A DNA stretch of 54,438 nucleotides, from positions 1 to 54,438 of IMG/VR virus record IMGVR_UViG_3300037882_000418; one strand, written 5' to 3'. The stretch comes from a virus. Its lineage: Duplodnaviria > Caudoviricetes. The notes beneath the pieces are model-generated. The model made no database searches, was not told the origin of the DNA, and saw nothing but the letters and a program-made list of their open reading frames with translations. Below, in pieces: positions 6,946 to 49,714 of this stretch. A program made the translations under genes and the position numbers. Each line of letters opens with the position of its first letter. Position 1 is the stretch's first letter.

Positions 6946-9900
6946 TATTTGCAGGATTTTTTATAAAATTCTTGTTTTACTAAATCGTCAGTTAACCCAA
7001 AAGATTTACCTCCAATCATAGCTTTTAATTCCTCTTCTAGTGTTTCTTTTTCAAAATCACTTCCTTCGTCATATTGTATTTTAAGACTATTAGCCATGTC
7101 ACTGTCTATAGATAACTTAGTTAACATCTCATCTAATGGGTGACTTTTAATTTCATTAGTTGTTTCAAATGTTTTTAAAGAATACTGAATGTATTTTTCT
7201 AAGGATGCATAAGTAGCATCATATATAGTTATAGTATCTTCTTGTATTCCAAATAGTTTTAATACTGCGTCCGCTATTTTTTTAAATATATATTTTACAG
7301 AAGGTAGCAAATTTTGCTTACTAGCTAATTTAATAAAGTTAGCATCAACTACGTTTGCAACAAACTCTCTTATATCTAATTCTGAAGGAGTATCTGATAC
7401 TATCTTCATTAGTGCAGTATTAGATTTAGCTTGCTCAAATATAAATTCTAATTCTTCTACAAATTCTTTTTCTTCTGTTGTTAAAGTTTCTCCGTCTTCT
7501 TCTTTATATAAAACATCTAGAGTAATAACATGAATAAACTCATGTAATAAAACTTCTGGGTTAGCTATTATAGCAGGTATATCCCAAGTAAGTATTTTAC
7601 CTTCTTTATTTATAGCGTCATAAGTAATTCCTCCACCATTATAGAATTTCATTTGTTTCCAAGCAGGAATTTCATAAATCTTTGTATCATCCCAAGCTGG
7701 ATGCTTTTTAAACAATTCTACTAAAGCTTGTGTATGTGGAGGTCAATTAATATCTAAATCAGATAACTTAACAGACTTTCCTCTATTGTTTGGATCTAAT
7801 CCTAAGTTAAGCTTTTCCTGATCAGTCATTTGAGGTGGAGCGACTGGGATAGGGTTAGAAGTCTGTTTTACTTCAGTTTCTTTAGGAATCTGTATAGATA
7901 ACTTAGATGCAGTTACTCCAGTAAACTGAGTCTCAAATAACTTCTCAGCTAGATTTCTATCAGCTTCAGTATGCAATTTTCCAAAGTTTCGTACAGAAGA
8001 ATTACTAAATTTACTGTCTATCTTTTTAGCATTACGAACAATAGGTATTCTAAAGTTGTATTGACCATTATTATTTTCTAATAATTGTTCTATATCTTTT
8101 TCAGTCATTCCATTTGTAGAAGCTCTATTCATTAAGTTTAATGCTTCAATTTCTAAATTTGCTTTCCATTCTTGAGCTGCTTCTAAACTACCAAATACAC
8201 TTAATAAACTAGGATTATTAGCTGCTACTGAATTAACTATAGCGTCAACTACTAAGACTAATGCTAAAGGAGTTTCTCTTTTAGTTTCTGAATTTTGAGT
8301 TGCAAAAGATAGAGTACCATCCGTCTTAAATATAAAATCTATATTAGATTCGTCATATGTAGTACCATCTAATAGTTCATCGGATTCCCAAGAAGACATA
8401 CTACCTTTAAGTGCATTTAAAGCCTCATTTGTTTTTTCATCTCCTAAAGCTCTAAATAATACATCTTGTAAGCTTTTCTCTAATAAAGTTTTAATATCTT
8501 TCTTTGTTTGAAAATCTACTAAACCTGTAGCAAACAAAGATTTTGCAGCTCTATAACTAAACTTCTTACCGCTCTCTACCTTATTCCTCTCAATAGTCAT
8601 TGATAATTGAGCATTTGCAGAAGCTATTAAATCAAAATCCTTTTGAATTGGCCCAGCACTTCTAGTAACTCTAGCAGCCTGCGCTAATGTACCTTGCCCT
8701 GCTGCATCTTTTTCGTAGTATAATACTTTAGAATTATCTTCTAATTGTAATTCTTTTTGAATATCTTCTATAGTAGCATTAGGATTTTTAGTTAAGTATA
8801 AGTTCATTTGTTTCTCTTTCAGTTTTACTGAAGGAACAAATTGCCCTACTGCTGCTGCATCTTTACTTAACAACTGTTTATATTCTGCAAATGTAATATA
8901 TTTATTACTAACAGAAGAACCATACACTAATGGAACTATTATATCTAGATTATCTTCTAATTTTTGTAAATCTACATTAGTAAAATTAAGCTCGCTAAAA
9001 GTATTGAAATCAAATTTATTAGCTTTGTTTACAGAGTATTCAAACTCATTTTTATCGTTTTTAGTTATTTTTATTTCATATGCTTTTTTAGCATAAGCGT
9101 CTAATAGTCTATCAAATTGCCCTTCTTTTACTACTCCATTAATTATCTTCCTATCATTTAATTTAAATTCTGGAAATATAGATTTTACTTGTGTAAAAGC
9201 TTTATAAAATTCAGTAATCCTATTTACAGCAGTATCTATATAATCAATTCCTAAGTTAGAATTATATTGTTTAGGATCTAGTCTAATAAATATAGGTTGA
9301 TGCCCTTTAGATGCTGATCTTTTTGCTTCCCAAGATATATTATCTATACGTAGATAAGGAACGCCTACTTGTAACTTAAAGTTTTTTAGTCCTATATCTT
9401 TAACTTGTTTAGCATCATAAATTACTACAGATATATCTGGGTCTTGATTATTAGTTGCTTTAGACCAATTAATTGGGCCGTTAAGATATGTAGAGAATAT
9501 ATGACTAGAAGGAATTAAGTTTAGTAAACCTTTAGCCCCTGTAAAGAATTCTGTAAAGAACTTAGGAATTATCGTATTTAAAGACAACGGATTTTTAGTG
9601 CCGTCAGGCATATGTATTTTAAGCTTAGAATTTACTGTTCCTGCTTTAAAACTGGCCATAGCTATACTATCTAAATTTTTAGCTTCAAAACCTCTTCTAG
9701 CTGCTGGAGTAAACCCATCTATATTATATACTGGCTTAGATAATAAGTCGTTCTTTAAAATATGTTTACCTAGTGGAGTGGAATCTTCAAATTCTTCTTT
9801 ACCTAATACAGCCACAGGATATACTAAATTATTAGAGTTATAATTTTTATCTTTTGCTACAAGTAATCTTAAGTCACTCGTTGTTGATCTTAATATATAG

Positions 9901-12900
9901 TATGTAGAGTAATCTATATTACTATTCTCTGGGCTAGATAACAAGTCATTATCTGGATACATTATAAAATGTTCTTCCCCATCTACAGTTAGTGGTGGAA
10001 TAAACATAGGTTCAGTAGGTATTGGTTCTTCAGTATCTTCAATTACTTCTGATTCTTCTTCTGCACTTTCTTCTTCAATTACAGGGTTTTGAGCTACAAC
10101 AGTAGTTTGTGGAGTGGCTACAACTACGGGAGTAATATTAAATAACGAAGCTAAAGAATTTAATCCTGCTACATATTCTTCTTTTATAATTTTAAAGTCT
10201 TCTGCTAATGAATTAGCATCCGCTTCTAAAGTGTCTGAATGTAAACTATCTGCATTATAACCAAAAGTAACTACACCTGCAAACTTAATTGCTCTACCTA
10301 TAGATGTATATAAAGCAGTGTTGTATTCTGGTTGAGTAAATACTGTATTATAAGCATTTCGTTGACTATTATTGATTGCTATATAGACTTCTTCTGCTTC
10401 TATACCTTGAACAGCTACATAATTTAATACCCTAACATTTGGATCTAATCCTAATTGTTGGTATCTTATTACTTCTGCATCATTAGCTACAATAAGAATT
10501 CTTTTTCTAGCCGAAGGTCTTTTTAGTATTTCTACAACATCAGTTTCACTTACTTCTTTTACTCCTAGGGCTGTACTAGGGTCATTTTTTAAATCTGTTA
10601 CAGTAGCTTTATTGGATGTAAAATCTACAGAACCTACTGGATTTAATTTGTCTTTAAATGCTAAAGCAGCATTTGTTATAGATGCTATATTAGTTCTATA
10701 AACTATGGATAGTGGAGCTGTATGATATACGTGTTTCTCTGTAGCAGCTACGTGAACTACTCCTGATCTGTTTTGAGATTCATCCCCAGCTAGTATAACT
10801 TTTATTCCTTTTTTATTTGCTTCATTTACAAGGTTAGCTACTTCATCATTAGTTACAGCTAACGACTCATCTAATACTATTAATTTCTTATTATCTAAAG
10901 AATTTAAATTACTTAATATGCTACTGATAGTATGTACTCCTTTTTTACCGAATATAACATCATTGAGTTGGTCTGTAGTCGTAGTATTATGCCCTAATAG
11001 AATAACTTCATCTTCTTTAAATAAATTTAAAGCTATACCTAATTTTACTAAATTATTAAGAACAACTTTAGTTTTTCCTGTTCCAATTATACCTTTAATA
11101 GTAGCAGCATTAGAATATAATATATTACTATTCTTTATAGTAAACCAATTAAGAATTTCATGTATTAAAGATTTTTGTTGAAAAGTAGGAGACTTTTCTG
11201 TAGTAGACATTTTAACTTCAGCTTCGGTTAAATCTTTTAGCTTTAAAGAAGAATTATTAGTAGTAATAATTTGACGTAAATTCAAATTGTACTTATGTTG
11301 CTTCATAAATTCTCTAAAAGAGTTAGCAACATTATCTCTAACTTGTAAAGGTATATCTGAAAAGTTAGATTTCTCTAAGTGTGATTCCAATTTTAGAATA
11401 TCTAAATTAGTTTGAAATTCTGCCCATGCTGTAGTAGATTTAAATTGATCTGGAAACAAATAGTAAACAATTTGAGATAATAAATAATTAGGATTAGTTA
11501 CATAGTTTTCTATTATAGATGGAAAGCTAGTTATTGCTGATGCTGTCCTAGTTGTATTTTCCCTATATAAAGTTTCTATCCTAAGAGAAAAAGCCTTATT
11601 ATCTTTTAATTGGTCTAGTATATGTAGTAACTTATAGTAAGCATAATCGTCTGTATATATTAATTCTAAATCTTTATCTTGTAGATTTAAAGTAGATAAT
11701 AATATAGATTTAATTTCAGAGTCTTCAAATAAAGACTTAATAGATACTACTTTATCTAATTCAATTCTTTCTTGAAAAGCTGCTCTAGATTGAGCTTGGT
11801 TTAATAAAGATTGAAGAATCTCTTCTAATTGTTTTACTATTGCAGTTACTTTAGATTCTAATAGAGGCTGTAAGTTTTCTAATTCGGATTTATCTTTAAT
11901 ATCTAATAAAGCAATTTTAGCCTTCTCTAATTCAGCTTTTACTGTAGGTATTTCTTCTGCTAAATCTTCTTTCAAAGCTCCAAACTCATAAGAGTTATTT
12001 ACAATAGATATACCATTAGCTAAATACTCTATAAAGAATCTATTTAATAGATACGGTAAACTAGATGTATTAGATTCTAATCTAGAAAAAGAAGATACTT
12101 GCTTAGTATATTTAGTTTTTAAAGAATTAAGATTGTTTAGTTGAGCCAACTTACCTTGTATTTCTATATATCTAGGTTCTAATTCAGGCTCCTCTATGTT
12201 ATCATCCGACTCTAAATCAATTAATTCATTTTCTAAATCATCCTTTAAAACATCAATTGAATTAAAAATATCATCTATAGAATCTATAGGAGCTAATAAC
12301 TGAGAATCGTTAATATACCTAGTTAAAAACCTCTCATACTCTTCAATATTATCTTCTGTTAAATCATCTATGTCTTCGTTTTCAGCTAAGAACAATTCTT
12401 TATTTCCTTTAGCTCAATCTACTTGATCTTTTAAAGGTATATCTAAAGACTGCTTAGAACCGAAGCTTCTAGCAGTGTTAGTATTTTGAACTTGAGAAGA
12501 CAACTTAGAACTTAATTCAACACTCTCTGTACCTTCTATAGCTTCTAGTTGTTTAACTTTTAAATCTAAAACTTTTGATCTATAGAGTAAAGCATCTTTA
12601 GCAGACTTATCTTTTTCTTTAGCTATTTCTTCGTTTAAAGCTCTTTGTTCTCTTTTTAATTGTAATAAAGGAAATATTTGCTGTTTATAAGCTTCTTTTA
12701 TCTTATTCTTATTTTCTTTTAAATCTAATAGTAAAGCTTTTTTATCTGTAATTAAAGTAGTAATGCCTTCTTTTGTTTTATCTGCCGCAGTTAGAGATAA
12801 TTTTTCTAATGCTTTTATCTGTGCTGAAGTTTTAAATAAAGTCTTCTTCATATCAATATTGAATTGACGAGAATCATCTTCGTTATCAAAATCATTTGCA

Positions 12901-16577: not shown

Positions 16578-18851
16578 TTATTTCTTTTTAGGTTTTTTAT
16601 TAACTCCTAATAGCTCTATATACTGAGCTATATCTGGATATGCTGCAGCCATTTGTTGAGCAGCCATTTCATTTTGTTTTTGCTTATTCATTTCTACTCC
16701 TAAACCAGATACGTTAGCTAACATTTGACTAATTGCATTATTACGAGCTGCTTTATTTTGAGAATTAATTTGATCTACATTATACTTATTTTGATTATTC
16801 TCAGCCATTCTTTGCCCTAGTCGCTGCTCATAGTTAATCTGTGATTGCTTATTCATATCTGTATACCTATCTATAACACTAGAATCATTACGCATTTTAT
16901 TAGAATAGGCTTGCTGTAAATTAGATAACCTACTGCTATCTCCTATACTATTACCTATAGTTCCTTTAAGCGCATTGAAAGAATACATATTCTGATTCAA
17001 TGCTTGAGAAGGATCATAAGTAGCCATATTTATAGGGGCAGTATTCTGATATAGATTTTGTTTTTCAGGTTTCTGAAAAACCATAGGCATCTGACCTACC
17101 ATACCTAATCCTTGTAACATAGTACCTAAATTATCTCCAAATGGATTAGATTCTGGAGCTGGTGGAACACCATCTTTTAAACTTGATACATTTACATTAC
17201 GGTTGTTAACTGGAGCAGCTATATCATTAGCTGGGTTAGGTGGAACTAAAGCATCTATATTATCTGGGTAATTTGCACCAGAAAAATCTATATAAGGCCC
17301 ATTTCTGTAAATAGTTTCTGGGTTGGTAGATACTTGCCAAGTATTAGGATCTGTAGTAGTTTTATTTGTAACTTCTTGAGATATAATTTGGCCTGTAGTT
17401 GGGTTCATGCTACTTATTCCTAACATGCTATCTATTAAACCATTTTCAGGAATAGAATAAGATTTTGAAGTGGGGTCGTAACCTAAACTTTGTTTATAAG
17501 CATCACCAGATAGTTTCCATAGTTTATCATGCTGTGGCCCCCATTGGCTATCCATTGAGAATCCAGCTTTAACTAATTTATCTGTACCTATACTATTATA
17601 AAAAGATTGGTAATCAAAGTTATCCCAAGGTGGAGTACCGCCATCTTTGTAAGACATCTTTCCTCCTTTAGATAACATTTTAGTAGAACTTACTAAATCT
17701 TTTAACCCTCGTACAGTATCATTTAATACAGTTAATTGTTCTCTAGATTTTTGATTCATTAATAATGTATTTTGTGCTTCCTTATCGTATTTCTTCGTGG
17801 CAGCATTCTTATCTGATAAAGCTAATTTCTTATCGTCTTTAGCAAAAGAATTACCAGTAAGAGGATTTGTTAACATATCAGAGAATACATACTTACCTTG
17901 AGATGTATTAGAAATAGTTTCTCCGTGGTCTACATATGCTTGAGGTAATTCTACTCCATCTACTTGAGACGGATTATTACCTATAACTTCTTGAGTATTT
18001 GGGCCTGTAGTATTTAAATAACCTCCTGAAGCTTTTCTTTGTTTCAGGTACTCCTCTGTATCTATAGGTTGTTTATCTGTTAAAAATTTACCAGTACCTT
18101 TTAATGTAGATACATTTTTACCTTGAGTTAAATTAATATAGTCAGTGTCAGTTAATGGTATTAATTTTCCATTTTCTTTTTTGTACCTATCTGGTATTTG
18201 TTTTGGAGGTTCAGTAGACACTAGATTATTTGCAGGAATAATAGATAAAGAAGTATCATAAGGTTTTTCGTAAACTGGTTTTACTTTAGGTTTATAATAT
18301 ACTGGTACATCATTAAACATTCTTTTATCTCCATCTAAACGTTTTTCTCCCGCCTTTAACGGATTTTTATATACTATTTCTGTTCTGTGGTATTCTTTGG
18401 GTTTTATATTCAACCCTATATCTTTAGCATCAAAAGTAGGGCGTATAGCTTTATTTAAAGGAATAATTCCTCTATCTACAAACATAGTTTCCCCTTTAGT
18501 AGAATTATGCCCATGCACATCTAGTCAATTATCTAGCATAGGTTTGTTTAAATTGAATAATTTTAAACTATCTGTGTACGATTTATAGGCTAAGTCATAG
18601 GCTTTTTTATCCTTATATACTTTTTTCTTGGGGGGATCTATTAAACCTCCCATAGCCATACCATAAGGATTAGTATTTTGTTGCTTAGGCATATATGCTT
18701 GTGGTTGATTTTGTTGAGAAATCATTTGCCCTGCCATATTAGCAATAGGAGCAGCAATAGCTCCACCTCCGGGGATTAACCCTAGAAGTGGAGATACTGA
18801 TTGTAGAAATCCGCCGAAATCCATTGAAAATTTATTATTTTTCTTTTTCAT
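16578..18851 (-). CDS. Putative internal virion (cargo) protein, 757 aa, one in-frame TGA (18525)
   Basis: 18525..18851 and 16578..18518 are joined in frame (LDN*LDVHGH). Recurrent xxGG motifs (MAMGG, KASGG, SKGG, KDGG) and a Q/N-rich helical C-terminus, as in crAss-like cargo proteins. Confidence 0.75.
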
Positions 18852-20891: not shown

Positions 20892-23800
20892 TTATCTGTA
20901 CGAAATACTTTGTATAGTATTAAGTAGATTTACGGTTAATTTAATATTTGCTCGACTATTATATTCTAATCTAATCGCTAACCATCTATCTCTTAATCTT
21001 GGAAATTGAAATAAAGATGGACTAGAATTAATATTTACAGGAACTTTATCTGTAAAGTAATCTAAAGATATATTAGCCCAAGCAGATGAAGATATATTAG
21101 TGTTGGGTAATTGTAAGTCTCTTAGGTTATTTAATTTCCAACCATTTTGTACTTTACTCATTAATACATCTATACCATAATCAGTAGTAAAAGAATTCGT
21201 CTTCAATACCAAATTCTTAAACCCTGTTGATTGACTAGAGTTATAAGCCCAGATTCTATTAAATGAAAGATCAGAACTTACTCCATCTAAAGTAGAGTTA
21301 CATATTAACTCTAATGAGTTAAAAGCTTTTACGATTTGAGGTTCTTTATTAGATATAAATTCTAATACAAATTTTTTCTTTTCTTCTCCATAGTATACGT
21401 GATATAAACCTGTGTTGTGTAAATATACATTAGGTGAGGAAGGTTTGAAAGAATAGAAATTATTACCATCATTCATATAATTGTAAGGTAAATATGAATG
21501 GTATGAAACCCAAGCATTATGTCTAGGAGAGTATGATAATGTTCAAGACCTATTTTGAATTGCAGTGCTTTTACCAAAGTTAATTTTCTCATTAGATGTA
21601 GAATTTTTCTTTTGAAAAAAGAACTTTAATATTGGATCCCAATAAACTTTATTAGCTATAGTTGTAGTGTCTAAAAAATCTTTTTCTCCAGCAAAAGTAG
21701 TTTCATCTAATACAAAATCATTCTTAGTTATTATATACCTTTTATGTCTAGGATCATATGTAGCACATATACCCACACCATCTGTAGGATAAGTCCAAGG
21801 ATACCTATACCCAAGTAATCTATAAAACTGCTCATGTATACCAAAAGGTAAATTGTTCTCAAACCAATTAGTCATACCTTCAGTAACTAAGGCTGGTGGA
21901 TTAGCAAGTCTATGTATCTTACCATGCTCTGAGTCTGGATAAAAAGTTCCATATTCTGTAGTCACTACTCCCATCCAATCTCTGCATCCTCCATGCGGGT
22001 ATGTAGTAGTAGATAATTTCTTAAATGGTATTGATAAAGGATCTCCTGTACCTACATAAGCTACATCTTCATTAGTCTGAATGGATTGAGGTTTAGTAGG
22101 AATAAATACTGGGTAATTATATGTAAGTGCAAATAGATTATCATTATCTACAACTAAATGTTCTAATCCTCCGCAGTCTCCGTTTAAGTCTCTAAAATTA
22201 TTAGCTTTGAAGTTTCTATAGTTATCAGATACTTCTGTTTGAAAAGATTGTTCTGAAGCTATAATTCTGTAAGGATATTGATTACCACAATCAGAACACC
22301 ATTCATAATTAAAAGGTAATGGGAATACAGGTAAAGAAGAATGTTTTGTATAATCATCATTATACCCAAAGAATTCGGGTCTGTAATAAAAATTATTTTC
22401 TTCTGGCCAGTACCCATCACAATAATGAGCCAAAGCTAAATTACCTTCTGTAGAAGTATCATAAATATCACCTTTAAAATATTCTTGAGTCATAGGATCT
22501 ACTAATCCTTGATGTCTAAGTTCAGAATTAATTTCACTTTCATAATAAGCACTAATCATGGAAGTCATAGTGCCTAAACTATTATTATACTTAAAATCAA
22601 ATCGAGTTATAAATATATCTCCTCCAAAGTAATTAGCAATTAAATCGCCAGTCTTAGTTAGTTCTACATAGTTTATATTATGTAAAGTTGAATGCGCAGA
22701 TAAATTACCTGTTCTTAAAGATACATAAGATACTTTAAATGGGTTAGCACTTAAGTTAGTAGTTTCCCATTCGTAATCATCTGCTAACTCTAAAGCTAAT
22801 TCAGGTATTGTATGACTAGGGTTAGATACAGTTTTACCTCCAAGAGATTGTCTTACCATCGGATGTGCATTACTTGTTAATATTTCTGTACCGTCATTCT
22901 GGGTTCACCTATCTATATGCCTATATCCAGCAGTAGTTCTATTAAATAGCGTATTATTATCTAAGTGTGTATTCCAATCTATAAATATCTTTTTAACACT
23001 AAAGCTAGGTATCTCGTTGAACTCGGTTAAAAACTGTGCTTCTGAAGTTATATAAGACATATTTAAGCTAGGTCTTTTTACCATTTGAAGTGGGGAACAA
23101 TAAAAATGAATTCTTCTATCGTAAGTCACTGGTGACCAACCCGGTAATGGGGTAAAGAAATAATTACCTACTCTATCGCCTTCAATATGAGCTTGTCCAG
23201 AAGTATCTCCTATAACTTGAGAAGTTATCAAATAACCTTTATCAAAAATAGTTCTATTAGTGTCGTCTCTTTCTCCTCTGGCAATAACCCACTCTACAAC
23301 ATCTATAGTAACTTCAGAGGGTAAATTTAATACAAAGTTTGTAATATCTACATTTATACCTATAGGATAAATATTGTCTTCATCTTCTATAGGAATAAGT
23401 TCATTGTTAGGAAATTTATGATGTCTAATTTTACCTACTGGATAAATTCTATCCCCGTTACAATCTACATCTTCTGGGTAATTAACATCAGATTCCCAAT
23501 ACGCCATTCTATCGTTAGTGGCAGTATTAAATACTAACCATCTAGGTACTATATTTACACCGTACCCTATATCATCCCCTAAGTTAACGAAACCTAAATG
23601 CTTAACATCAGCTAAGTTGATTTCGTCTACACCTCTAGGAGTACCGTCAGCAATTACTGTAATATTATCTAAGTCAGATGGAATTGATTCTGTTCCGGGA
23701 ATATGAAATGCAGGAGTTCTAGTACCATCATTTAATTTACCATATATAGTTAGCGGATATACTTCGTCTCGTAGAAAAGATTTAGTTTTAGTATAGTAGT

Positions 23801-30288: not shown

Positions 30289-30461
30289 TAGTATTTTATA
30301 TTTAATTCAAACACAATTAATTTAGTGTTAGGTTCTAATTTATCGTGTAAATTTTTAATATATCTAAATCTAGGAGCGATATATTTTTTCGTCATCCTAG
30401 TTAGAATAGGGGTATAATCGTTATCTATTAAGGATCTGAATGTGTAATTTCCTATAGTCAT
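30288..30461 (-). CDS. Small hypothetical protein (57 aa) missed by the ORF track
   Basis: MTIGNYTFRS...FELNIKY*; TAATG overlaps with the neighbouring genes at both ends. Confidence 0.65.
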   Translation of the reverse strand: MTIGNYTFRSLIDNDYTPILTRMTKKYIAPRFRYIKNLHDKLEPNTKLIVFELNIKY

Positions 30462-32875
30462 TATTTTTCAAGTTGTTTTATTCTTTCTTCAAGTTGTTGT
30501 ATGTATGCGTACAGTTCTTTAACTCCTTGTAGAGCTATAGAAGCTATAGCGTTGTAACTAACTGATTTCATTTTATCTTCAGTCTCATCTGTAAATACTG
30601 CTTCTGGGAAACATTCTTCTATTTCTTGAGCGATAACTCCTATGTTTCTATTTTCTTTAGGGTTGCTTTTTAACTTATAAGAAACACCTCTAAAGGAGTT
30701 CACATAAGGTAATACAGATAATACAGTAATATCTTCTTTTAATCTATAGTCAGACCCAACTAACCACCCAGATGACCCTGAAGTTATATGTGCTCTGGTA
30801 GTTGCTCCTTCTTTCACTTGAAAAGATTCAGAGCCACCTACTGCAGCTAATCTCCAGTTACCTTGAGTAAAGTGTATTGCTACATCTCCACTTGTATTAG
30901 ATGTGTATGGGCCTAAACATAAAGTAGCATCTATTGTACTATTAGCATTTCCTAATAAAGTTTTACCTGTATCGTGAAATGTTGCTACTGTACCCCAGTT
31001 TTTACTTGCACCAGATTGTCTAACTTTAAATATGAACTCTGAACCGCCATTAGTACCATCGTTACCTGCAGCTACAAAATTTGCAGTTTGTCTTTGTGTG
31101 CCACTATTTACTTCATTATTAATTAATAAAGCATGAGAGTTATTAAAACTGGCTTCAGACATTATAGCGCCACCACCTTTAAGGTGTAAAATAGTTTGTT
31201 CGCTAGTACCAAATTTAGAATCTGTAGGTAAAGCAAAAGCACCGTAATGTAAAGATGTAGTAAATCCTTTATCTCCTGCAATATTTAATTGTGTACTATT
31301 TAAGTCTACAAAGTTTTGTACGTTTGACCCCGTACCTCCATTACCAATAGGGATCACACCTGTTAAAGATATATCTGGATTTGTACCTCCTGAAGAAGAT
31401 AATGGGGTAGTAGCTGTTACAGCATTTACTTTGTTATTAAATGTAGTCCAGTCTGTCGGCTGTAATTTACCTGTGACTGTGCCTGAAGCAACTGGTAAGT
31501 GTAATGTATGAACACTACCTGCACTAACTATATTAAAATCAGTTCCAGTTGTTCCTGTTTGTAAAGTTTGAGAAGCAGCAGTGAGTCCATTTATAGAGGT
31601 TATACCTCCACCACCTCCACCACCTCCGGCTACAGCGTTATCTACATATTCTTTATCTACTAAAGATCTGTTATCCCAAGTACCTGAATAATTAGCTAAA
31701 TACCTAAATCCATCTACTTGTAAATCTACTCTTGTTGCTGTAGCTACTTGAAAACATAATTTCTGAGAAGCTACGCCAACTCGTACTGGACTAGGTGTTA
31801 ACCCATCTTTGAATGCTAATCATGCACCTCCTGTACCACTTGTAGGAGTTTCAATTAATACGTGATTAGTGTTAGCAGAAGTGCTAAAAGTATGTATTCT
31901 ACCTTGAGGAGCAGTGTTTATACCTACTCCAATATTCCCTTGAACTGCTAGATTAGCGTTAGGAATAACTGCGGTAGTATAACCTGACCCTATACTCATC
32001 CCCCCATTTAAAGATAGAGCAGAACCGGGAGCAGTAGTCCCTATACCTAGTTTACCATCAGGCATGAATCTAGCTCGTTCTATTCTAGCGTTTGTAGTAC
32101 CTGTTTCAAATACAATACCTTGAGGTATAACTCCAACAGATGGAGTACCCATTAACTGTAAGTGAATACCTGCGGTTGTTAATGCAGCAACACCATCATA
32201 ACCTGCACCTAATAAAGATAAAGTAAAATCATTAGTACCTACTATAATAGGAGTAAGAACTGTACCTTTAGTTTTAATACCTTTAATGGCTCCTCTAGTA
32301 GTATTTTCTACATTTGAAGATATTAAAGTTAAAGTTGCACCGTTTAATTGTGAGCTTGTAATAGTCTGAATAGAGTTAGTATCTATTAAAGATGCGTGTA
32401 AAGTATCTCCCTCATCACTAATCTGAAACTTATTTTGAGGAGTCTGAACATTTATACCTACTTTATTATTACTTAAAGCTTTTATAGCACTTAAAGGATT
32501 AAAGATATTAGCATTGACTGTTCTTAATTCAAATCCATGTGCAGTAGCAGATTCCGTAACTGCCCTAAGAGATAACATAGGAACAGTATTATTTGTTTCA
32601 AAATCTATTGAGCTATATAAACCTGCTGTACTAACAGTATTTTTTCTATTTAAGACTAATAATGGTACGCTAATAGCATTAGTTATATTAGAATTTAACT
32701 CTAATACCCCACCATTACGTAGCATAAAATTACTTGTTTCGCTAGAAACAAATCCTATATCATCATTATCATACCAGTTTACTCCGGTAGTTAAATTATC
32801 TTCAGTACCTCTAATAGTAGGTTCTGCTGATGTTCCTAAAGGAACTGTTAATTTATGTACGTATCTAGTTATCAT
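30461..32875 (-). CDS. Tail fibre with C-terminal intramolecular chaperone (peptidase S74), 804 aa, one in-frame TGA (31820)
   Basis: The frame stays open for 154 codons after the TGA and runs into 30461..31357. GKLGIGTTAP-type repeats, a poly-Gly linker, and SDYRLKEDI...IGVIAQEIEECFPEAV...coiled-coil end. Confidence 0.88.
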
Positions 32876-40557: not shown

Positions 40558-42981
40558 TTATTTTGGGGTTTTACTCACCTTTGATGCTTTAATCCGAGCT
40601 AATTTTTCTGCAGATTCTCGATCTTTTTTATTTTCTTCAGTTTCATGTTGCATCTGTTCTTTTTTGATAGTAATATCTGCTTTTAATTTTTCTAGTTCCA
40701 TGATGTCTGGAACTTCATTATCGTTTATATCTGTATCCTCTGCCCAAGATAAAGCTTTAATCATTTCTCTTTCTTTAGCAGCAGCATCTTTTTGAGCTTG
40801 TAATTCTTTTGCATGTTGAAACTCTTGAGCTTTCATTTGCTGGGCCATCATAGAAGCTTGTTTTTGAGATTCTTGTTGTGCTCTAATTTGTTCTAATTGC
40901 TCTTGTTGTGCTTTGGATTCGGATTTTAAAATATCTATTTCTAATTCCCTAGCTGAAGTGCCTTTTAGTATCTTGATAATATCTGTAAGTTTAGCTTTAT
41001 CATTCTGCAATAAAGGTTGAGCCAAGTTTTGTAGTTGTTCAAATAATCTAGTATCTTTTGTAGCATTAGATATGAATAATCCTAAGTCACAATTAACTAA
41101 TGAATCAGATGGTATCTCTAAAGTTTGTAAAGACAAATCATCTAGTACATATTGTTTAGTTATAGATTTATTTTGATACGCTACCTGCGCACACTGAATT
41201 AAAGAGTTTAATACATTCTCCCATAACAAATCATGGGGTTTCATATAGACAGCCTCTATAATATTAGAAGACATGGCTATGTCAGACTGTGCATTAGTTA
41301 CTGCTTGATTAGTAGGTGTTTGACCCTCAGCTCCTCTAGGAATACCAGCTACATCATTAATCTGTTCATCTAGTAAAGCTAACGATTGAAAATAAGCTAA
41401 TATCTGTTGAATATTAGATCTATCTACAGCTCCACTTACTTTACCACCTCGTTGATGAGCACCCGGTCTTTCTGCATTTTGTAAAGGATTATAAAAGTCA
41501 TAATCCATTTCTTCTAAATAGTATAAAGTCTTTTCAATTCCCATTATAGGGTCAATCATTGTAGTATCTAAAGGAAAGGTTTTTCCTTTATCTCTAGCAA
41601 TTAATCTTTTTAACTTATGACACACCATACTATAGATGTGTTGAAACGGTTTCATACGTTGCACTATAGATATAGCTGGAGCATTAGTATTAGAATATAC
41701 TAACCCGTGATAACCTAATTTTACTTTATATGGGTTATCTACTGACCTATATTGATACTTTTTAGGACCAATACAGCAATAAATATTCTCTCCTATTTTA
41801 ACACCTTCCCATACTTCAGGGATATACCCCCACTCTAACGAATAATTATCCCAAACATACTCTGTAATAGTCTCCCCATAATGACCTTTAGAAGTAATAA
41901 TCTCTGCATAAGGAGGTATTACCAAATCTTCAGACACCATCATAGTTTCCTCTCCATTTTCTTTTAAGAAACCTATTCTTTTTTGACTTACCCACTCTAC
42001 ATGAGTAACTTCTATATCATCCATTCTAAATGGGGAATAGGAACCAGCAGGAGCATTTAATCCGTATTCTTGTTCTAGTTCTGCTTTAAAGAATAAATCG
42101 GTAGGGTGGTCATCTCTAGTATTAGAACCAGAATACATTTGCTCTAATCTTTCTACATCAGACTTCGACAAGAATTTAGCAAACTTATCTAATACATCCC
42201 CTATAGTTAATTTAGTTTTATACCCAGCATACATACCGTCTTCTACATATTTAACATCTGCAGATTTATGATAAAATACACCTAAAGGATTTAATATAAC
42301 TGTAACAGGTTCATTATTTTCTATACCTACCCAGACATGCTCTTCTCCAGAGATTAGCCCGTGTTTAAATGAATCATTCTTCTTATCTATTAATCTTTCT
42401 TTCTTTAAAAGAAATTGCATTAATTGGTTAGCCAATCTCTCTTTAGCGTCCATGTAAGTATAGGTCATATACTCCTCTATAGCCTCTAAAGACTTAGAAG
42501 GCTGTTGTTGCTCTTGCCCCTGTTGTTGAGGTGGCTCTACTTGTGCATAATTTTGAGTTACATAATTCTCTACGAATTCAGAAAGTAATTTCTTTTTAAA
42601 TTCTAATTTAGATTTAATTCCATCAGAGTTTACTAAAACTACTTTATAGTTAAATGCTCTTTTATATTCTTGCCCAAGTAACCAGTTTATTTTATTAGGT
42701 ATTTTATTGTAAGCTTTTATTTCGTCTTTATATTGACCTACCTCTATACCTAAAGCATTACAGTCAGCTTCAAATTCTGTCTGATCTATAACATTATTAT
42801 ACAGTAAATAAGAATTCAACATTTGAGAATGCCTAGAATCTTTTACTTTAGATTCAGTATTAAACAATGTATATGAATCCCTAATTACATAGTCTATAGT
42901 TCTTTTTGCCCACTTAAAGTCGTCTTTGATTTTTTCTTTAAACGAAAGCCGCTGCTGTGGAAACACCAAATTTGTGTCCAT
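40558..42981 (-). CDS. Portal protein
   Basis: 807 aa; FPQQRLS..EK, YNKIPNKI..LLG.E, EVWEGVKIG and MKPFQ..Y motifs; Q-rich coiled-coil tail. Confidence 0.9.
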   Translation of the reverse strand: MDTNLVFPQQRLSFKEKIKDDFKWAKRTIDYVIRDSYTLFNTESKVKDSRHSQMLNSYLLYNNVIDQTEFEADCNALGIEVGQYKDEIKAYNKIPNKINWLLGQEYKRAFNYKVVLVNSDGIKSKLEFKKKLLSEFVENYVTQNYAQVEPPQQQGQEQQQPSKSLEAIEEYMTYTYMDAKERLANQLMQFLLKKERLIDKKNDSFKHGLISGEEHVWVGIENNEPVTVILNPLGVFYHKSADVKYVEDGMYAGYKTKLTIGDVLDKFAKFLSKSDVERLEQMYSGSNTRDDHPTDLFFKAELEQEYGLNAPAGSYSPFRMDDIEVTHVEWVSQKRIGFLKENGEETMMVSEDLVIPPYAEIITSKGHYGETITEYVWDNYSLEWGYIPEVWEGVKIGENIYCCIGPKKYQYRSVDNPYKVKLGYHGLVYSNTNAPAISIVQRMKPFQHIYSMVCHKLKRLIARDKGKTFPLDTTMIDPIMGIEKTLYYLEEMDYDFYNPLQNAERPGAHQRGGKVSGAVDRSNIQQILAYFQSLALLDEQINDVAGIPRGAEGQTPTNQAVTNAQSDIAMSSNIIEAVYMKPHDLLWENVLNSLIQCAQVAYQNKSITKQYVLDDLSLQTLEIPSDSLVNCDLGLFISNATKDTRLFEQLQNLAQPLLQNDKAKLTDIIKILKGTSARELEIDILKSESKAQQEQLEQIRAQQESQKQASMMAQQMKAQEFQHAKELQAQKDAAAKEREMIKALSWAEDTDINDNEVPDIMELEKLKADITIKKEQMQHETEENKKDRESAEKLARIKASKVSKTPK

Positions 42982-45900
42982 TATTATTAAATATTTTTTT
43001 ATTATTAGCTAAAAAAGATTCTATCTCTTTTTCAATTTTATCTGGTTCAGTAATTATCGAGACATATTGGTTGTGAGTTTCATTTAGACCTATAATACAC
43101 CCCATAAGACTCATTATAGCGTCAAAGTTACCGTCTAAGTTAAATGCTATAAGTTGTTTTATTGTGTATTTACACCTTAATTTATGAAGATTTCTTATTA
43201 CCCTATCCCCATCTAATCCTCTTTCTTCTAGTAACCAATCTCTTAAATAGTTTATACCTTCTAATTTCATACCTCTAGAAGACATGGGGTAACCATAAAC
43301 TAAACTTGGATTACTAGAAAAACTTGCTTTTTTAGTTAGAACAGTTTGAGGAGCATGAGCAAGTAAATCTAATCTTTTAATCTTTTCAAAATACTCTTTT
43401 GTATTTCCCCTTACATTTTCAAAGTATATTTTAGCACTACCATAAAATAAAGACAATTTAAATAGAGTTTCGTTTACTACATGTCGTCCTTGCCACGGTC
43501 TTGCAAAGTAAGTAGCTACAATCTCATCGTGTCCTATTTTAGTACCATATTTTTTAGTTTTTATGACGTGTATAGCACTTAACGAATCTCCAGAGGGATC
43601 ATCAATAGCTTGAGGGTCATGTCCTATTAAGTAAGCTCCTTCAGGAATACAGCCATCTACAAATTGAGGAAACTCATAAATAACGACTGCACCTTCTTTA
43701 GAAGACCCCTTCCAAGGAAAATCATTAATAGGCATTAATACCTTATCAACATCTATTTTATAATTAACTCCATTATATTCAGGAGATTTAGGGTCAAAAT
43801 ATAACTGTACAGGAATTTCTAAAGTATCCCAAGCTTTTTTATTTTCTAATTCTGCTAATACTTCTCTAAGTTCTATGATAGGCATTATTGCCCCATCTTT
43901 AGATAAAAATATTTCAGAAGGTTTTAGTGGTCTATAAACTATTTCCGCTTCTAATAGAGCTGAAGAACCTTTTGAATTCCTTAACTTAGCTCTATCTTGT
44001 TCAAGTTGTTTTATAGCAGGTTCTTTAATAGTATTACCATTCTCATCTTTAAACTTATTAAGACCTTTGTAAGCTGGGATAAAATAACCTATTCTGCCTC
44101 TAAATTCCCACTCATCATCAAATGATAGACAATCATAAGTTTCAGGCTCATAGAATATTTTCTGTACATCCACTGTACCTGAGTCCATGTCCCCACCAGT
44201 ATTATGTGTTATAAATCCATTTGCTAAATAAGTATGAGAATTATCTGTAGTTATATTATATACGTCTTGTTCTCCAATATCTGTAATTTTAGTTATGGAT
44301 ACTGATTTAGTATTATAGATATTAGAACATTCATAGTTTCCTATTTCACTAGGTACATAAGTAAGAGTTTTTCTATTCCAAAGTTTTTTAGGAGTAAATA
44401 ATTCTACTTTATCCAAAGCATCTTGCTTATGATTACATTTTAAAGCGAATGATTTTTTAAACTGAAATACATCCTCATATTTTGATATGTACAGTCTATA
44501 TATAGGTTCATTGGATTTATACCCATTTTTTCTAAATTCCTTCCTAATCGCACAATGTATCCCATATTTTAATAATAGGTACTTCATTTGATTAAGTAAA
44601 AATAAAGAAATAGAAGTTAATGTAACTTGTACATATTTATTTTTCTTTATACCTACATTTCCATCTGCATCAAAGTAACCACTAATAAATTGAGATAAAG
44701 TCTCTTTGTTAAACATATGTATGTTTCTAGGAAAACATTTATCTAATTTAGATTTACCTTCTAAATTTTCAGATTTAACTAGATTCACTATGTTCTTAAC
44801 ATAGTAAGATTTGAATCCGGTTTTTTCATTATATGTTTTTGTAGTTACTTGATAATTAGATTCAAAATAATCTTGTAATTCTTTTTCTAACACAGAGATT
44901 TCTATTCCGCCATGTTTATAAAAATATCCGTCCCCTACTGAGTAACCTAGTAAATAAGCATCTTTATTTTCTAAAGTTCCAAATATTGGAACTTCATTAG
45001 CTAATAGTAATCTATCAGTTAATTTTATATCTTTAGCTAATTTAAAAGTAGCAATAGATTTTTTTGATTCTCTAACTAAAATTGGATGATCTGTGGAACA
45101 TTCTATAAAATTATTATTGATACAATCAATTCTTACACATGGCTTTTTTTGTGGGGGATTTATATTTACTAAATCATTAGCTTCAATATGAGCACTATCA
45201 AATCCTAATATACCATCTACAAACTTAATATTTTCAATTGGAGTAATTTCTCCATATTTATTGTATACTTGAGTCCCTTTACATACGCAACCGATGAATA
45301 TAGTAGTACCAAATTTAACTTTATCTTCTGTTTGTACAGATACTAAAGCAGTATATGTCTCAATAAGATTAGGAAACATGCCTACTTCTTCTAATAAGAT
45401 TATACCTGCCCTAGAACCTTGAGCAGCAAATGGATTATCTCTAAATGTAATATTTTTGATTGTAGATTGAGAGCCTACGTATTTCCAGTTACCGCCTATT
45501 TTCTTTTTATACCTAGCAGTTATTTTAGAGCCAGATTGCCATCCACCAACATATCTCTGATAAAAAGGATGTGGGTAAGATACGCCTCCTATATCTACAG
45601 CACCCGGTAAATTCTCTATTGCTATTTTTGTCTTTACAAGTACATCATCAGAGTATTTAGCATCTGCTGCCCCTACAATTACTTCTGAAGAAGTTTTAGC
45701 TCCGGGGTCATAAGTAGTTTGCCCATTAAATAAATATTCATGTCCTACCACTCAAGAGTTCAAGTACGACTTTCCAAAATCCCTAGGCCCAAGCATACAT
45801 ATATTCTTAGATGGATTTTCATATAAAGGTCTGCCTTTATTAAACTCATGTATCTTTTCTAAATTTTCTCTAGGTGGAATATATTTCTTTAATAACCCAT

Positions 45901-46294
45901 TAGGTGCAATTACAGAGGGGTAATTTGCTACTAAGTAATCAGTAGCTTCAAATATACCAACCTCATTCATTTCCTTAACAACTATATTAGAAGTATATTC
46001 TGTATCTAATATAAACCCAGAGAACCCACGAGCTTCAGTTAAATACCGATGGTACTCTCACTCTATATCACGCAAAAGGGGCCTAGCAAAAGATTTAACT
46101 TTTGAGGCCCCTAGCGTTCTTCGTATTGTGCCAAAATTGGCATAAGAGTAGAGTTTACCCGGCATGTATTTGCCGGATACCCATTCTCCCTCAATACTTT
46201 TTCTTTTTTCTTCTCGTCAGAATGAAATATACTTATGAGATAAAGGATGATATTTAGGAATTTCTTTTAGTAAAAATTCTTCGTTACTTATCAA
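42938..46294 (-). CDS. terL: Terminase large subunit (~1118 aa including intein); three in-frame TGA (46217, 46058, 45752)
   Basis: From TTG 46294: YHP..YISF*REE...LRDIE*EY...GPRDFGKSYLNS*VVGHEY. Walker A GPRDFGKS, Walker B ILLEEVG, nuclease motifs IGHDP and GNFDAIM. Confidence 0.9.
44201..45289 (-). mobile_element. Intein (363 aa) with LAGLIDADG homing endonuclease inside terL
   Basis: IFIG|CVCKGTQV...CSTDHPIL...LLGYSVGDG...FISGYFDADG...VYNIT..HTYLANGFITHN|TGGDM; removal restores the GTGGDM motif. Confidence 0.93.
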
Positions 46295-46733
46295 GTTTTA
46301 TTTCTAACTGTTTTAAAAGTCTTCTTAATTCTGATATATTTTTTATTACTCCTTGGAATATAACTCCTTCGTAAGAATTTTGATTATAAATTATAACACT
46401 GTTTTCTTCTGGATAAAAATCTAAAAATGTATCTTTATTTATTAAATAATGAAATAAATTTTCTTTATCTTCTACAAACCCTAAAGATATAATATCATCT
46501 GAGTCTAGGTATTTAACTCTAAAGTTTTCTTTTATATAATTACCCCACTCTTCAACTTTTTGATCATATATACAACTGTATAATCCTAGGCTAAATTCTT
46601 TTATTTTTTTTCACTCTTCTGGCATAGGATAGTGATCTGAGGAAAGCTCTTGTGCAACTGTATTTATTTTAGTTTCACATTCAAACCCAACATGAAATTC
46701 AGATATATCTGGGGTATAATATTTATTAGACAT
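46284..46733 (-). CDS. Conserved crAss-like hypothetical protein (149 aa), one in-frame TGA (46611); absent from the ORF track
   Basis: [20 protein letters not shown]...EE*KK...RVKYLDSDDIISLGF...FQGVIKNISELRRLLKQL; TAATG-coupled to groEL and overlapping the terL start. Confidence 0.8.
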
Positions 46734-48343
46734 TAAAATTCAGTTTGATTAGGATCTTCTGGAATATAAGTTTCATTAGATTTTAAATCCTGCGCATCTA
46801 TAGTAATACATGCTGCAGTTAAAAGTAAAGCAGTAGCTACAGATACAGCTGCATCTAAAGCTGTAATTAAAACTAGAGTAGGGTCAATTACACCTCTTTC
46901 AATAAGATTTACAAATTCAGAAGTTTTAGAGTCAAATCCTTTATTTATGTTAATAGCGTTATAAACCACACCAAAAGAGTGATTACCATTTTCACATAAA
47001 GTTTGTAAAGGGGCTTTTAGTGTGTTTTTAAGAGCAATAAAGCCGGGGCTATCATTTAACATTGTCTTAGAGATTTCAGCAAAGACTGTTCCTCCACCCG
47101 GTACAAAACCTGCTTTAAGGGCAGCCTGTGTAGCTTGGATAGCATCATCAAGTCTAAACTTCTTTTCTTTTAATTCAATATCTGTATAAGCACCTACATT
47201 AATAATAGCTACTTTACCAGCAAGCATTGCAATTCTTTCTTTTAGCTTTTGTAAATCGTAAGAATGATCTGGAGGGGTTGATTCTAATTCAGCTTTAACT
47301 TCCTCTATTCTAGTATTTATAGCAGATTGATCTTTAGGCGTAACTACAAAAACAGTAGAATTTTTAGTGACAGTAATTTTATCTGCTGTACCTAGATCTG
47401 TAATCGAGCATTGTTCTAAAGACTTACCTAAGTTTTCAGTAAATAGAGTAGCACCAGTTAACAGAGCTAGGTCTTGTAAAAGTGCAGTTCTTCTTTCCCC
47501 AAATGCAGGAGCTTTGATGGCACATAATTGAAGTTGAGCTTGAATTTTATTTACTAATAAAACCGATAAAGCTTGTGATTCAATTTCTTCTGCTACAACT
47601 AATAAAGGTCTGTTTGCTTTAGCTGCAATAGTAACTATAGGTAGAATGTCTTTAGCTGCCCTTAGTTTCTTATCATAGAAAAGAATAAGAGGATTCTCAA
47701 ATTCACAAGTAAGTTTTTTCTTATCTGTGATAAAGTGAGGAGATATAAACCCACGATCTATTTTAGCACCTTTAGTAAACTCTAAAAAAGTATCTGTAGA
47801 TTTAGAATCTTGTGTAAGTACAATACCTTCTGAGCCTGCTTGTTCAAATGCATCTGCAATTAAATTACCTAGTATAGTATCATTATTTGCAGAGATACTA
47901 GCTATATCTTGTAAATGTTCTTTAGAAGAAATAGGAGTAGACATTTCTTTAACTGTAGTAATTACCTCATCTTTAGCTTTCTCTACTTGTCTTTTAAATT
48001 CAATTGGAGAAATAAGTCCTGATTGAATATATTTATACCCTTCATTAAATAAAGCTTGAGCTAAAACAAGTCCTGTAGTAGTACCATCACCTACTTCAGT
48101 TACTACTTTGGATGCTGCTTGTTGTAAAACTTCAGCAGCCATATTTTCAGTTTGATCTTTTAATGAAATGGATTTAGCTACAGTTACACCATCTTTAGTT
48201 ATGGTTGGACTGGAATACATACCTTCAATAAGTACATTTCTACCTAGCGGCCCTAAAGTGACTTTAACTGTATTTGCAAGTATATTAACCCCTTGCTGTA
48301 ATTTTTGTAATGACGACGGATTGAATTCGATATTTTTAATCAT
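46733..48343 (-). CDS. groEL: Phage-encoded chaperonin GroEL (Cpn60)
   Basis: [48 protein letters not shown] and GFVPGGG motifs. Confidence 0.95.
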
Positions 48344-49036: not shown

Positions 49037-49089
49037 CAACTGTTTAGCAAAGTTAACCTATGGCAAGGTATTATCTTTAAATTATTTTG

Positions 49090-49184
49090 CACGAGCTGTA
49101 GGAATCGAACCCACACTCCAGCTTTTGGAAGGCTGGGGGTATAGTTTTGAAGACTACTTGCTAGCCAATTAGCACCTAGCTCGC
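49090..49184 (-). tRNA. Opal-suppressor tRNA (anticodon UCA) with 26-nt variable arm; 3' CCA not encoded
   Basis: Acceptor GCGAGCT/AGCTCGT with G73; D stem TGCT/AGCA; anticodon arm GTAGT-CTTCAAA-ACTAT (TCA at 49150-49148); T arm GTGGG-TTCGATT-CCTAC. Confidence 0.9.
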
Positions 49185-49207: not shown

Positions 49208-49714
49208 CTATATAAGTTCTTGTTCAGATATAGATTCTACTGCTGTACCTTCTAGTTTAGAATCTTCTTCTGCTACGTCTTTTAAGCAATTCTGATATTG
49301 CTTCCACATCTTTTCTGTTAAGGACATCATTTTATCTAAATCCTCATAAGTATTTAAAGAATAAGGAATAGATGCAATTAACTCTTGTCTTTCATCTAAT
49401 TTAGCTTCCCAAGCATATAAATATTGTTCCGCTTTAGAGAGACAAAAATTCTTAAGAGTTTCTGAATGTTCCTTAAAATGATCCCAATCTAATTTAAAAT
49501 CTAAATACTCTAATTCTATAGTTTCTCTTCTTTTTAAAAGTGGAAGATTATTATATATAGACTTAGGATGAAAATCTAATATTAAAGCCCAAATTATTTT
49601 AGATATATTATCTTCTTCATATTTCTCAATAATACTCTGAATAAACTTTTCTAAAGTAACTAATTCAGGATACATTAATAAGATATCTTCAGAAGGATTT
49701 AATTTTATTTTCAT
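49208..49714 (-). CDS. Conserved helical protein (168 aa); terminase small subunit candidate
   Basis: SKIIWAL..HPKS.Y..LP motif, coiled-coil C-terminus ending ESISEQELI; upstream of terL. Function is inferred only. Confidence 0.6.
   Translation of the reverse strand: MKIKLNPSEDILLMYPELVTLEKFIQSIIEKYEEDNISKIIWALILDFHPKSIYNNLPLLKRRETIELEYLDFKLDWDHFKEHSETLKNFCLSKAEQYLYAWEAKLDERQELIASIPYSLNTYEDLDKMMSLTEKMWKQYQNCLKDVAEEDSKLEGTAVESISEQELI

Follow-up and report, generated by a model that had tools for sequence, protein, structure and literature searches.

Tryptophanyl-tRNA synthetase (TrpRS) and glutaminyl-tRNA synthetase (GlnRS) read the anticodon, and a change of anticodon that makes a tRNA read a stop codon therefore normally costs that tRNA its identity. 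Phage opal suppressors, tRNA(UCA), have been described in three accounts close to the case reported here, by Borges et al. (preprint 10.1101/2021.08.26.457843), Lera (zeta-crAss, PMC12386605) and Seki et al. (2025, PMC12636597). In this report, we analyze a tRNA(UCA) gene carried by IMG/VR virus record IMGVR_UViG_3300037882_000418 (the whole stretch of 54,438 nucleotides is called the window hereafter). It shares with the described suppressors the UCA anticodon and the presence of TGA codons at tryptophan positions of late genes, terminase included, and for all of them charging by a host or phage TrpRS is presumed. The window gene has, in addition, a long variable region that folds into a second hairpin resembling an anticodon arm, with CCA in its loop; no long variable arm or second anticodon-like hairpin is described in the sections of the three accounts that were compared.

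An arm of this kind has been engineered: a GUG 'pseudo-anticodon arm' placed in the variable arm (V-arm) enhanced histidylation by a HisRS with an extra anticodon-binding domain (Mukai 2020, PMC7590224). Our main finding is that a natural form, with a constant loop and covarying stems, recurs in 51 unique tRNAs, and is apparently a widespread and conserved design of phage suppressor tRNAs that had not been described before. The second arm is probably a spare identity arm, which would present CCA to TrpRS while UCA decodes UGA.

The window tRNA and its class

ARAGORN reports one tRNA in the window (49089-49184, minus strand, anticodon tca). The gene is made up as follows.

49090..49184 (minus strand): tRNA(UCA) gene of 95 nt, with G1 at 49184 and the discriminator G73 at 49090, as given by ARAGORN, the sequence and a cloverleaf parse (7 acceptor, 5 UCA-arm and 5 T-arm pairs)
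49141..49157 (minus strand): decoding anticodon arm GTAGT/CTTCAAA/ACTAT, anticodon TCA at 49148-49150, 5/5 pairs standard
49137..49140 (minus strand): 5' linker ACCC between the two arms, read from the sequence
49118..49136 (minus strand): second anticodon-arm-like hairpin, in the variable region, with a CCAGC/GCTGG stem and covariation in 51 tRNAs
49115..49117 (minus strand): 3' linker AGT, preceding the T stem, read from the sequence
49090..49091 (minus strand): discriminator G73 and U72, the tRNA-Trp-type acceptor identity positions; U72 pairs with G1 at 49184

The variable region is 26 nt long (49140-49115, ACCCCCAGCCTTCCAAAAGCTGGAGT), and its hairpin has a C.A closing mismatch (49131/49123) and a 7-nt loop, TTCCAAA (49124-49130), in which CCA (49126-49128) stands in anticodon register. 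An earlier reading of the letters alone by a model (the sequence-only reading) had given the decoding arm as GTAGT-CTTCAAA-ACTAT, followed by a 26-nt variable region with the hairpin CCAGC(C)-TTCCAAA-(A)GCTGG, and this description agrees with the sequence base for base. The G73, the G-U first pair and the missing U8 that it noted are also there, as G at 49090, G1.U72 and A8. The acceptor is a 7-bp stem that opens with this G1.U72 pair (49184/49091). The D arm is irregular, with A8 replacing U, a 3-nt connector, a 5-bp stem and a loop containing GG; a single A separates the D stem from the anticodon arm, a 5-bp stem and the loop TTCGATT make up the T arm, and no CCA end is encoded. A bacterial-type elongator tRNA is recognizable in the 7-bp acceptor, the GG of the D arm, the 5-bp/7-nt anticodon arm with U33, the 5-bp T stem and the TTCGA loop. 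ViennaRNA also folds the CCAGC/GCTGG hairpin, the whole single-sequence fold being unremarkable (z = -1.9). A promoter and terminator scan gave nothing usable, the sole 'terminator' being the V hairpin read from the opposite strand.

Searches that started from the window sequence led to no homologue. Exact-pattern searches with window-specific strings returned chance matches in coding DNA only and no tRNA, blastn of the 1.8-kb neighbourhood gave no match in the phage collection, and no tRNA lay in any of the 13 phage loci fetched for their GroEL relatives (30-41% identity). We therefore surveyed IMG/VR with a pattern that leaves the variable region free (CTTCAAA, 24-40 nt, GGTTCGAWTCC), which retrieved at least 118 stretches. 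Among the matches listed are 35 unique cloverleaf-consistent tRNA(UCA) with long variable arms, and 23 of these have UCCAA in the variable region, against 0.64 expected by shuffling; about 10 of the remaining ones resemble tRNA-Sec, in that their acceptor stem is longer and they lack a CCA loop. A search for relatives based on the terminase gave 80 loci, three of which, all crAss-like (L145, L158 and L164), have a tRNA(UCA) gene within a few kb of the terminase, on its upstream side. Each of these tRNAs forms a hairpin with the loop GUCCAAA, on differing stems.

The class was then defined by a forward scan of IMG/VR for a UCA loop followed by UCCAAA and by a T loop, which gave 79 stretches; the scan with reversed arm order gave 10 stretches and none of these tRNAs. 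Acceptor, UCA-arm and T-arm pairing is found in 65 of the 82 forward matches parsed (the window included), which reduce to 51 unique tRNAs with 32 acceptor strands. The 17 rejected matches are chance matches in coding sequence, one gene truncated where its locus stops (L239) and a single case open to doubt (L275). Pairing of the V stem was no criterion in choosing the 51 tRNAs. The class excludes L118, which has a 5-nt loop and discriminator T, and L037, which has no clear stem; two variants, with the loops GUCCAUA (L069) and UUCCAAC (L070), lie outside the forward pattern.

In these 51 tRNAs the loop of the second arm is GUCCAAA (28), CUCCAAA (17) or UUCCAAA (6). Counting outward from the loop, every tRNA has standard pairs at 2, 3 and 4, with four to five pair types each, and pair 5 is standard in 47; pair 1, next to the loop, is standard in 37, and C.A or A.C in 13, the window included. 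Positions 6 and 7 are paired in 14/24 and 12/24 of a first set of 24 tRNAs, which is near chance, so that the V stem is 5 bp long, the length of an anticodon stem. The helix statistics were obtained on an ungapped alignment of the 51 17-nt arms, with a loop-anchored register for the pair counts. Paired cells amount to 93.2%, against 53.2 +/- 2.6 in shuffles (0/500 reach the observed value) and 28-56% with a slid partner; cells changed on both sides number 86 against 26.7, and the covariation score is 1.057 against 0.239. The sequence-only reading had asked whether other UCA tRNAs keep the V-loop on stems that covary, and they do: N-U-CCA-A-A is kept in 51 phage tRNAs on 43 distinct 5-bp stems. 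As far as sequence comparison can tell, the second arm is under selection.

The surroundings of the arm are also regular. In the fixed 5-pair register, the 3' linker is 4 nt in 41/51, often NGGU, and the 5' linker varies from 2 to 10 nt, 5 being the commonest length; one nucleotide, as at position 26, lies between the D stem and the UCA arm in most class rows listed. All 51 tRNAs have G73 and 50 have U72, the 1:72 pair being A-U in 41, G.U in 9 and G-C in 1. According to the Giege-Eriani review of tRNA identity (PMC9976931), the major tryptophan identity elements are the discriminator (G73 in Escherichia coli and Bacillus subtilis), the anticodon and the first pair, and rice mitochondrial tRNA-Trp has G1-U72. 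The window tRNA joins the UCA anticodon to such a tRNA-Trp acceptor set, G73 with a weak N1-U72 pair. Ordinary phage tRNA-Trp(CCA) of the fetched loci have the anticodon loop CUCCAAA in 31/35 and A as first base in 24/35.

Bacterial genome contigs gave, among the 120 matches listed, 19 cloverleaf-consistent tRNAs, four of which belong to the class: one on a Phoenicibacter metagenome-assembled genome (MAG) contig (L294), two in Parabacteroides goldsteinii (L310 and L382) and one on a scaffold of Bacteroides neonati MS4 (L369). The B. neonati tRNA is identical to that of an IMG/VR provirus locus (L284). The other 15, among these matches, have a tRNA-Sec-like acceptor register, and their UCCAAA lies mostly off a paired 5 bp + 7 nt hairpin. 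As a side observation, eight loci (L298, L312, L325, L331, L340, L368, L375 and L390) on bacterial genome contigs hold tRNA-Sec-like genes with UCCAAA in the V-arm loop but off any paired 5 bp + 7 nt hairpin, those with a title being Alphaproteobacteria; they were retrieved only because the search pattern demanded UCCAAA.

UGA decoding and an amber counterpart

This phage uses UGA as a sense codon. The window, which spans roughly half the genome of a crAss-like phage (completeness 53), encodes a Crassvirus major capsid protein, a portal, GroEL and a terminase that contains a LAGLIDADG intein; by its terminase, the nearest cultured relative is Cellulophaga phage phi14:2, at 36% identity. Most window genes are open under table 11; the terminase is not. 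Two genes contain in-frame TGA codons:

42938..46294 (minus strand): terminase large subunit gene with LAGLIDADG intein; in-frame TGA at 46217-46219, 46058-46060 and 45752-45754; needs UGA read-through
30461..32875 (minus strand): tail-fibre-like gene, 804 aa; one in-frame TGA at 31820-31822

The three terminase TGA codons all fall within the first 181 codons. In an alignment of 108 homologues, counted without the query itself or the truncated product of the window, column X26 is W in 102 and column X79 is W in 105; at two of the three terminase sites, then, UGA stands at a tryptophan position of the homologues in the same genome as the tRNA. The third site, X181, is directly past a Walker-A-like GKS motif, in a column that tolerates many residues. 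The tail-fibre-like gene runs through its TGA. An 803-aa homologue spans 100% of it, and opposite the TGA its three closest homologues carry Y, W and Y.

Similar placement of UGA is seen in relatives that carry a class tRNA. In the terminase of L145, 3/4 internal TGA codons are on W-majority columns (83/86, 83/86 and 41/86), and in that of L158, 6/10 are. By a crude measure, the gain in open reading frame (ORF) cover, class-tRNA loci of at least 8 kb have a median of +0.11 with TGA as sense versus +0.06 with TAG as sense, and some of them gain more from TAG than from TGA; 55 control loci, terminase relatives with no class tRNA, gain 0.035 (TGA) and 0.033 (TAG).

Two neighbouring genes deserve mention. 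A GroEL-type chaperonin (46733-48343, minus strand; PHROG 5725, Pfam Cpn60_TCP1) lies downstream of the tRNA gene, at a distance of about 750 nt. The terminase intein matches Pfam Intein_splicing and LAGLIDADG_3 at residues ~185-517 of the table-11 ORF, and inteins are also present in several homologues.

Amber is the stop codon that phages reassign to Gln. An amber survey equally free of conditions on the variable region (CTCTAAA, 24-40 nt, T loop) gave at least 114 stretches, in which 63 matches are cloverleaf-consistent and 52 tRNA(CUA) are unique; these figures, and the amber and UCA counts of this paragraph, refer to the matches listed (L412-L525 for amber). The variable regions of the 52 amber tRNAs contain CUGA in 33, UCUGA in 26 and UCCAA in none, whereas the 35 tRNA(UCA) contain CUGA in one and UCUGA in none (Fisher's test: UCCAA, 23/35 UCA versus 0/52 CUA, p = 1.3e-12; CUGA, 33/52 CUA versus 1/35 UCA, p = 1.7e-9). 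The amber motif stands within a 7-nt loop, CUCUGAA (12), UUCUGAG (12) or others such as CUCUGAC and CUUUGAA (examples are L443, L524, L426 and L475), carried by a stem of about three pairs (39/41, 38/41 and 30/41, with chance level beyond). Ordinary tRNA-Gln(CUG) of the fetched loci have the loop CUCUGAA or CUCUGAC in 4/8. The commonest 1:72 pair of the amber set is U-A (17/52), and G73 is found in 33/52; three type-II-like members with A73 (L431, L442 and L496) have no Gln-type loop on a paired stem.

When anticodon-like V hairpins were compared over the 1042 unique tRNAs of the fetched loci, UCA with CCA occurred 35 times and CUA with CUG 19 times, every other pairing occurring at most five times; in Ser, Leu and Tyr tRNAs hairpin combinations were seen one to three times only, none of them matching the tRNA's own anticodon. 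This comparison is internal and no census, because the loci had been chosen through the UCA and CUA patterns. Other unusual phage tRNAs were met on the way. Five loci (L096; L026, L033, L059 and L061) have further tRNAs with long variable arms. One of these is an 89-nt tRNA-Trp(CCA), and others are long-arm tRNAs for Asn (GUU), Met (CAU), Thr (UGU), Lys (CUU), Glu (UUC) and Arg (ACG), the tRNA-Met of L026 containing CAU in its V-loop. In two related viral contigs ARAGORN calls a 95-nt 'tRNA-Asn' (att), at 1227-1321 of L001 and 4603-4697 of L002, which is probably either a miscall or some tRNA-like gene of atypical form.

A candidate identity arm and its rivals

In the mechanism that we propose, the UCA arm would read the in-frame UGA codons of late genes, such as the terminase and the tail-fibre-like gene, and insert tryptophan. 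The tRNA bears acceptor-end identity marks found in bacterial tRNA-Trp, G73 and the weak N1-U72 pair, and its second hairpin matches the tRNA-Trp anticodon arm in shape and loop, with 5 bp, 7 loop nucleotides and the series U33-C34-C35-A36-A37-A38. The tRNA would be expressed, and host TrpRS, the normal reader of C34-C35-A36, would contact this triplet on the spare arm and charge the tRNA with tryptophan, the arm being flexibly tethered beside the decoding arm or transiently replacing it. With TrpRS using the spare arm and the ribosome the UCA arm, identity and decoding would thus reside on separate arms. The length of an anticodon arm and flexible linkers are what one would expect if the loop must reach the same enzyme site.

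That the arm would serve as an identity element is the simplest reading of its constant loop, its diverging stem, its 3' position, the tryptophan acceptor marks and the switch to Gln in the ambers. The sequence-only reading had suggested such an identity decoy, and this is the best-supported explanation, through the conservation in 51 tRNAs with G73 in all of them, the UGA codons at terminase Trp columns and the amber parallel, since a Gln-anticodon-like loop at the same place in amber suppressors lends support to an identity role; we rate its prospects as somewhat better than even. The wider proposition of a general phage design, in which the canonical arm reads the stop codon and a spare arm shows a sense anticodon (CCA for TrpRS in opal suppressors, CUG or UUG for GlnRS in amber ones), seems to us about evenly poised between true and false. 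If true, it would define a new structural class of tRNAs, mislabelled as tRNA-Sec or missed by current finders.

Several points weigh against this explanation or against the strength of its evidence. The UCA anticodon retains C35 and A36, and Seki et al. (2025, PMC12636597), who screened phage tRNA(UCA) cell-free in E. coli extract, observed Trp insertion by every one of the 13 analysed, the second-arm status of these 13 not being apparent from the Results section of that paper. The spare arm is therefore maybe not strictly needed, and may improve charging rather than enable it. The V-arm loop would also have to reach the anticodon-binding site of TrpRS, which the explanation supposes. The class members share descent to some degree, so that the counts are not counts of independent events. 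RNAalifold, run on a MAFFT alignment of 24 whole tRNAs, found the acceptor, D, UCA and T helices and not the V helix, a miss explained by MAFFT having set the V stems out of register. At the level of the gene, no family of Rfam reaches its gathering score within the window, the best match being tRNA-Sec at 38.8 bits against a gathering score of 47, and ARAGORN labels the gene tRNA-SeC. As for RNA, the one metatranscriptome run with a signal (4% of sampled words) gave a single 151-nt contig, at 49410-49560, which lies on the upstream ORF and off the tRNA. On the decoding side, the homologues vary at terminase X181 (45752-45754), where they have small residues and never W (G 50, A 12, S 10, C 10 and W 0 of 108). 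Moreover, TGA codons at 7743-7745, 12414-12416, 18525-18527, 21543-21545 and 22905-22907 (minus strand) separate long same-frame ORFs, some of which have only TTG or GTG as next starts; either virion genes of very large size read through them as sense, or they are true stops, and tblastn of 201-aa segments centred on the TGA codons at 12414, 22905 and 18525 gave no match in the phage collection.

Among other explanations is a conformational alternative or dual decoding, both of which the sequence-only reading had named. Here the CCA arm would take the canonical place, the UCA arm being looped out at position 26, and the tRNA would decode both UGG and UGA. The exact anticodon-arm geometry of the second arm (5 bp + 7 nt) speaks for it, as do the 4-nt linker that follows the arm in most members, often NGGU and resembling a class-I variable loop, and the fact that removing either arm with its linker leaves a tRNA of normal length. 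We regard it as unlikely, however, because the arms come in one order alone (forward, 65 cloverleaf-consistent matches; reverse, none), because one nucleotide, position 26-like, joins the D stem to the UCA arm in most rows listed, and because the second hairpin of the amber tRNAs, among the matches listed, is too short at about three pairs to decode. The feature common to both classes is thus the loop, not a usable anticodon arm. A swap that stacks the CCA arm under the D arm could still be the way in which the loop is presented in the Trp class, and to that extent this alternative overlaps with the identity-arm explanation. Binding of another partner, be it a modifying enzyme that reads A36-A37-A38, an anticodon nuclease for which the arm is a decoy, a phage protein or an RNA bearing UGG, would account for a conserved and exposed anticodon-like loop, and for that only. 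It is quite unlikely, given that G73 and U72 are found together with the loop and that the loop type changes from Trp to Gln with the stop codon decoded; the loop tracks the amino acid wanted at that codon, which makes a single common partner improbable.

A neutral relic is a further alternative, the sequence-only reading having named a relic of arm duplication. In this case the anticodon arm of a tRNA-Trp would have been duplicated in tandem, one copy then changing C34 to U, and the second arm would be functionless now. The decoding and second loops do differ by a single base, and members of the AGGGGCU type have GGU/ACC beside the loop in both stems. This idea is weakened by the stems themselves, since a tRNA's own two arms match each other no better than do arms taken from different tRNAs (4.49 versus 4.53 of 10 stem positions), and by the compensatory changes that run through 43 different stems. 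It also fits poorly with U-CCA-A in 23/35 unique tRNAs obtained with no pre-selection, about 10 of the rest being tRNA-Sec-like (matches listed), and with an amber class in which the corresponding Gln loop sits on a stem that does not resemble that of an anticodon arm; we hold it to be very unlikely. A true tRNA-Sec, or a Ser-inserting suppressor charged by SerRS through its long variable arm and G73, would agree with the ARAGORN label, the best Rfam match, the long extra arm and the discriminator. Against this stand an acceptor/T arrangement of 7/5 and not 8/5, an Rfam score below gathering, the lack of a CCA loop in the tRNA-Sec-like UCA tRNAs of the same survey (matches listed) and UGA codons on invariant Trp columns, so that we consider it extremely improbable.

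Significance and comparison with known systems

If the identity-arm explanation is true, it would explain how host enzymes charge suppressor tRNAs in phages of standard-code hosts. The general design, if real, would also be a natural means of getting past the chief obstacle to reassigning codons where the synthetase reads the anticodon. Transcripts and purified TrpRS or GlnRS would allow a direct test of the hypothesis, and the isolate records of Bacteroides neonati MS4 and Parabacteroides goldsteinii that hold class members are possible culturable systems. There are also consequences for annotation, as ARAGORN calls such genes tRNA-SeC and Rfam thresholds miss them. Suppressors were found in only 35-40% of recoded genomes, according to the Borges preprint (10.1101/2021.08.26.457843), and mislabelled dual-arm genes could explain part of the recoded phages with no detected suppressor tRNA.

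The sequence-only reading knew of no description of such a tRNA. For natural tRNAs this agrees with the full-text literature searched, little of it from subscription journals and none from supplements, in which no tRNA bearing two anticodon arms was found; it does not hold for engineered ones, as a V-arm pseudo-anticodon exists (PMC7590224). As far as the accessible text of a review of non-canonical tRNAs and of the identity review (PMC9976931) goes, anticodon mimics are placed only in mRNAs and in viral tRNA-like structures.

The bacterial tRNA-Sec has an 8/5 acceptor/T arrangement. It shares with the window tRNA the UCA anticodon, G73 and the long variable arm (Rfam RF01852), but the window tRNA is 7/5, lies below the RF01852 gathering score and lacks the 13-bp acceptor/T branch. 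Type II tRNAs (Ser, Leu and Tyr) share the cloverleaf of five helices, in which a hairpin separates anticodon arm and T arm; in the fetched loci, however, ordinary type II V-arms have short loops, stems of varied length and no 7-nt anticodon-like loop that matches their own anticodon, whereas the dual-arm class has 5 bp + 7 nt and a fixed loop. Also comparable are the anticodon-arm mimics of mRNAs, such as the E. coli thrS operator and yeast aminoacyl-tRNA synthetase mRNAs, in which a hairpin with the loop of the cognate anticodon is read by the anticodon-binding site of the synthetase (PMC9976931, as far as that review describes them). Those mimics regulate translation from mRNAs; that of the window lies inside a tRNA and would serve aminoacylation.

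The allo-tRNA of Mukai 2020 (Int J Mol Sci 21:7793, PMC7590224) likewise carries a copy of an anticodon arm in the V-arm of a suppressor that reads a stop codon. Its pseudo-anticodon arm is synthetic and presents GUG to a HisRS fused to an extra anticodon-binding domain, and the sections of that paper considered here cite no natural case. The phage tRNAs would offer genetic-code engineers a natural template for a design whose only precedent found is this engineered arm, which needs a modified synthetase.

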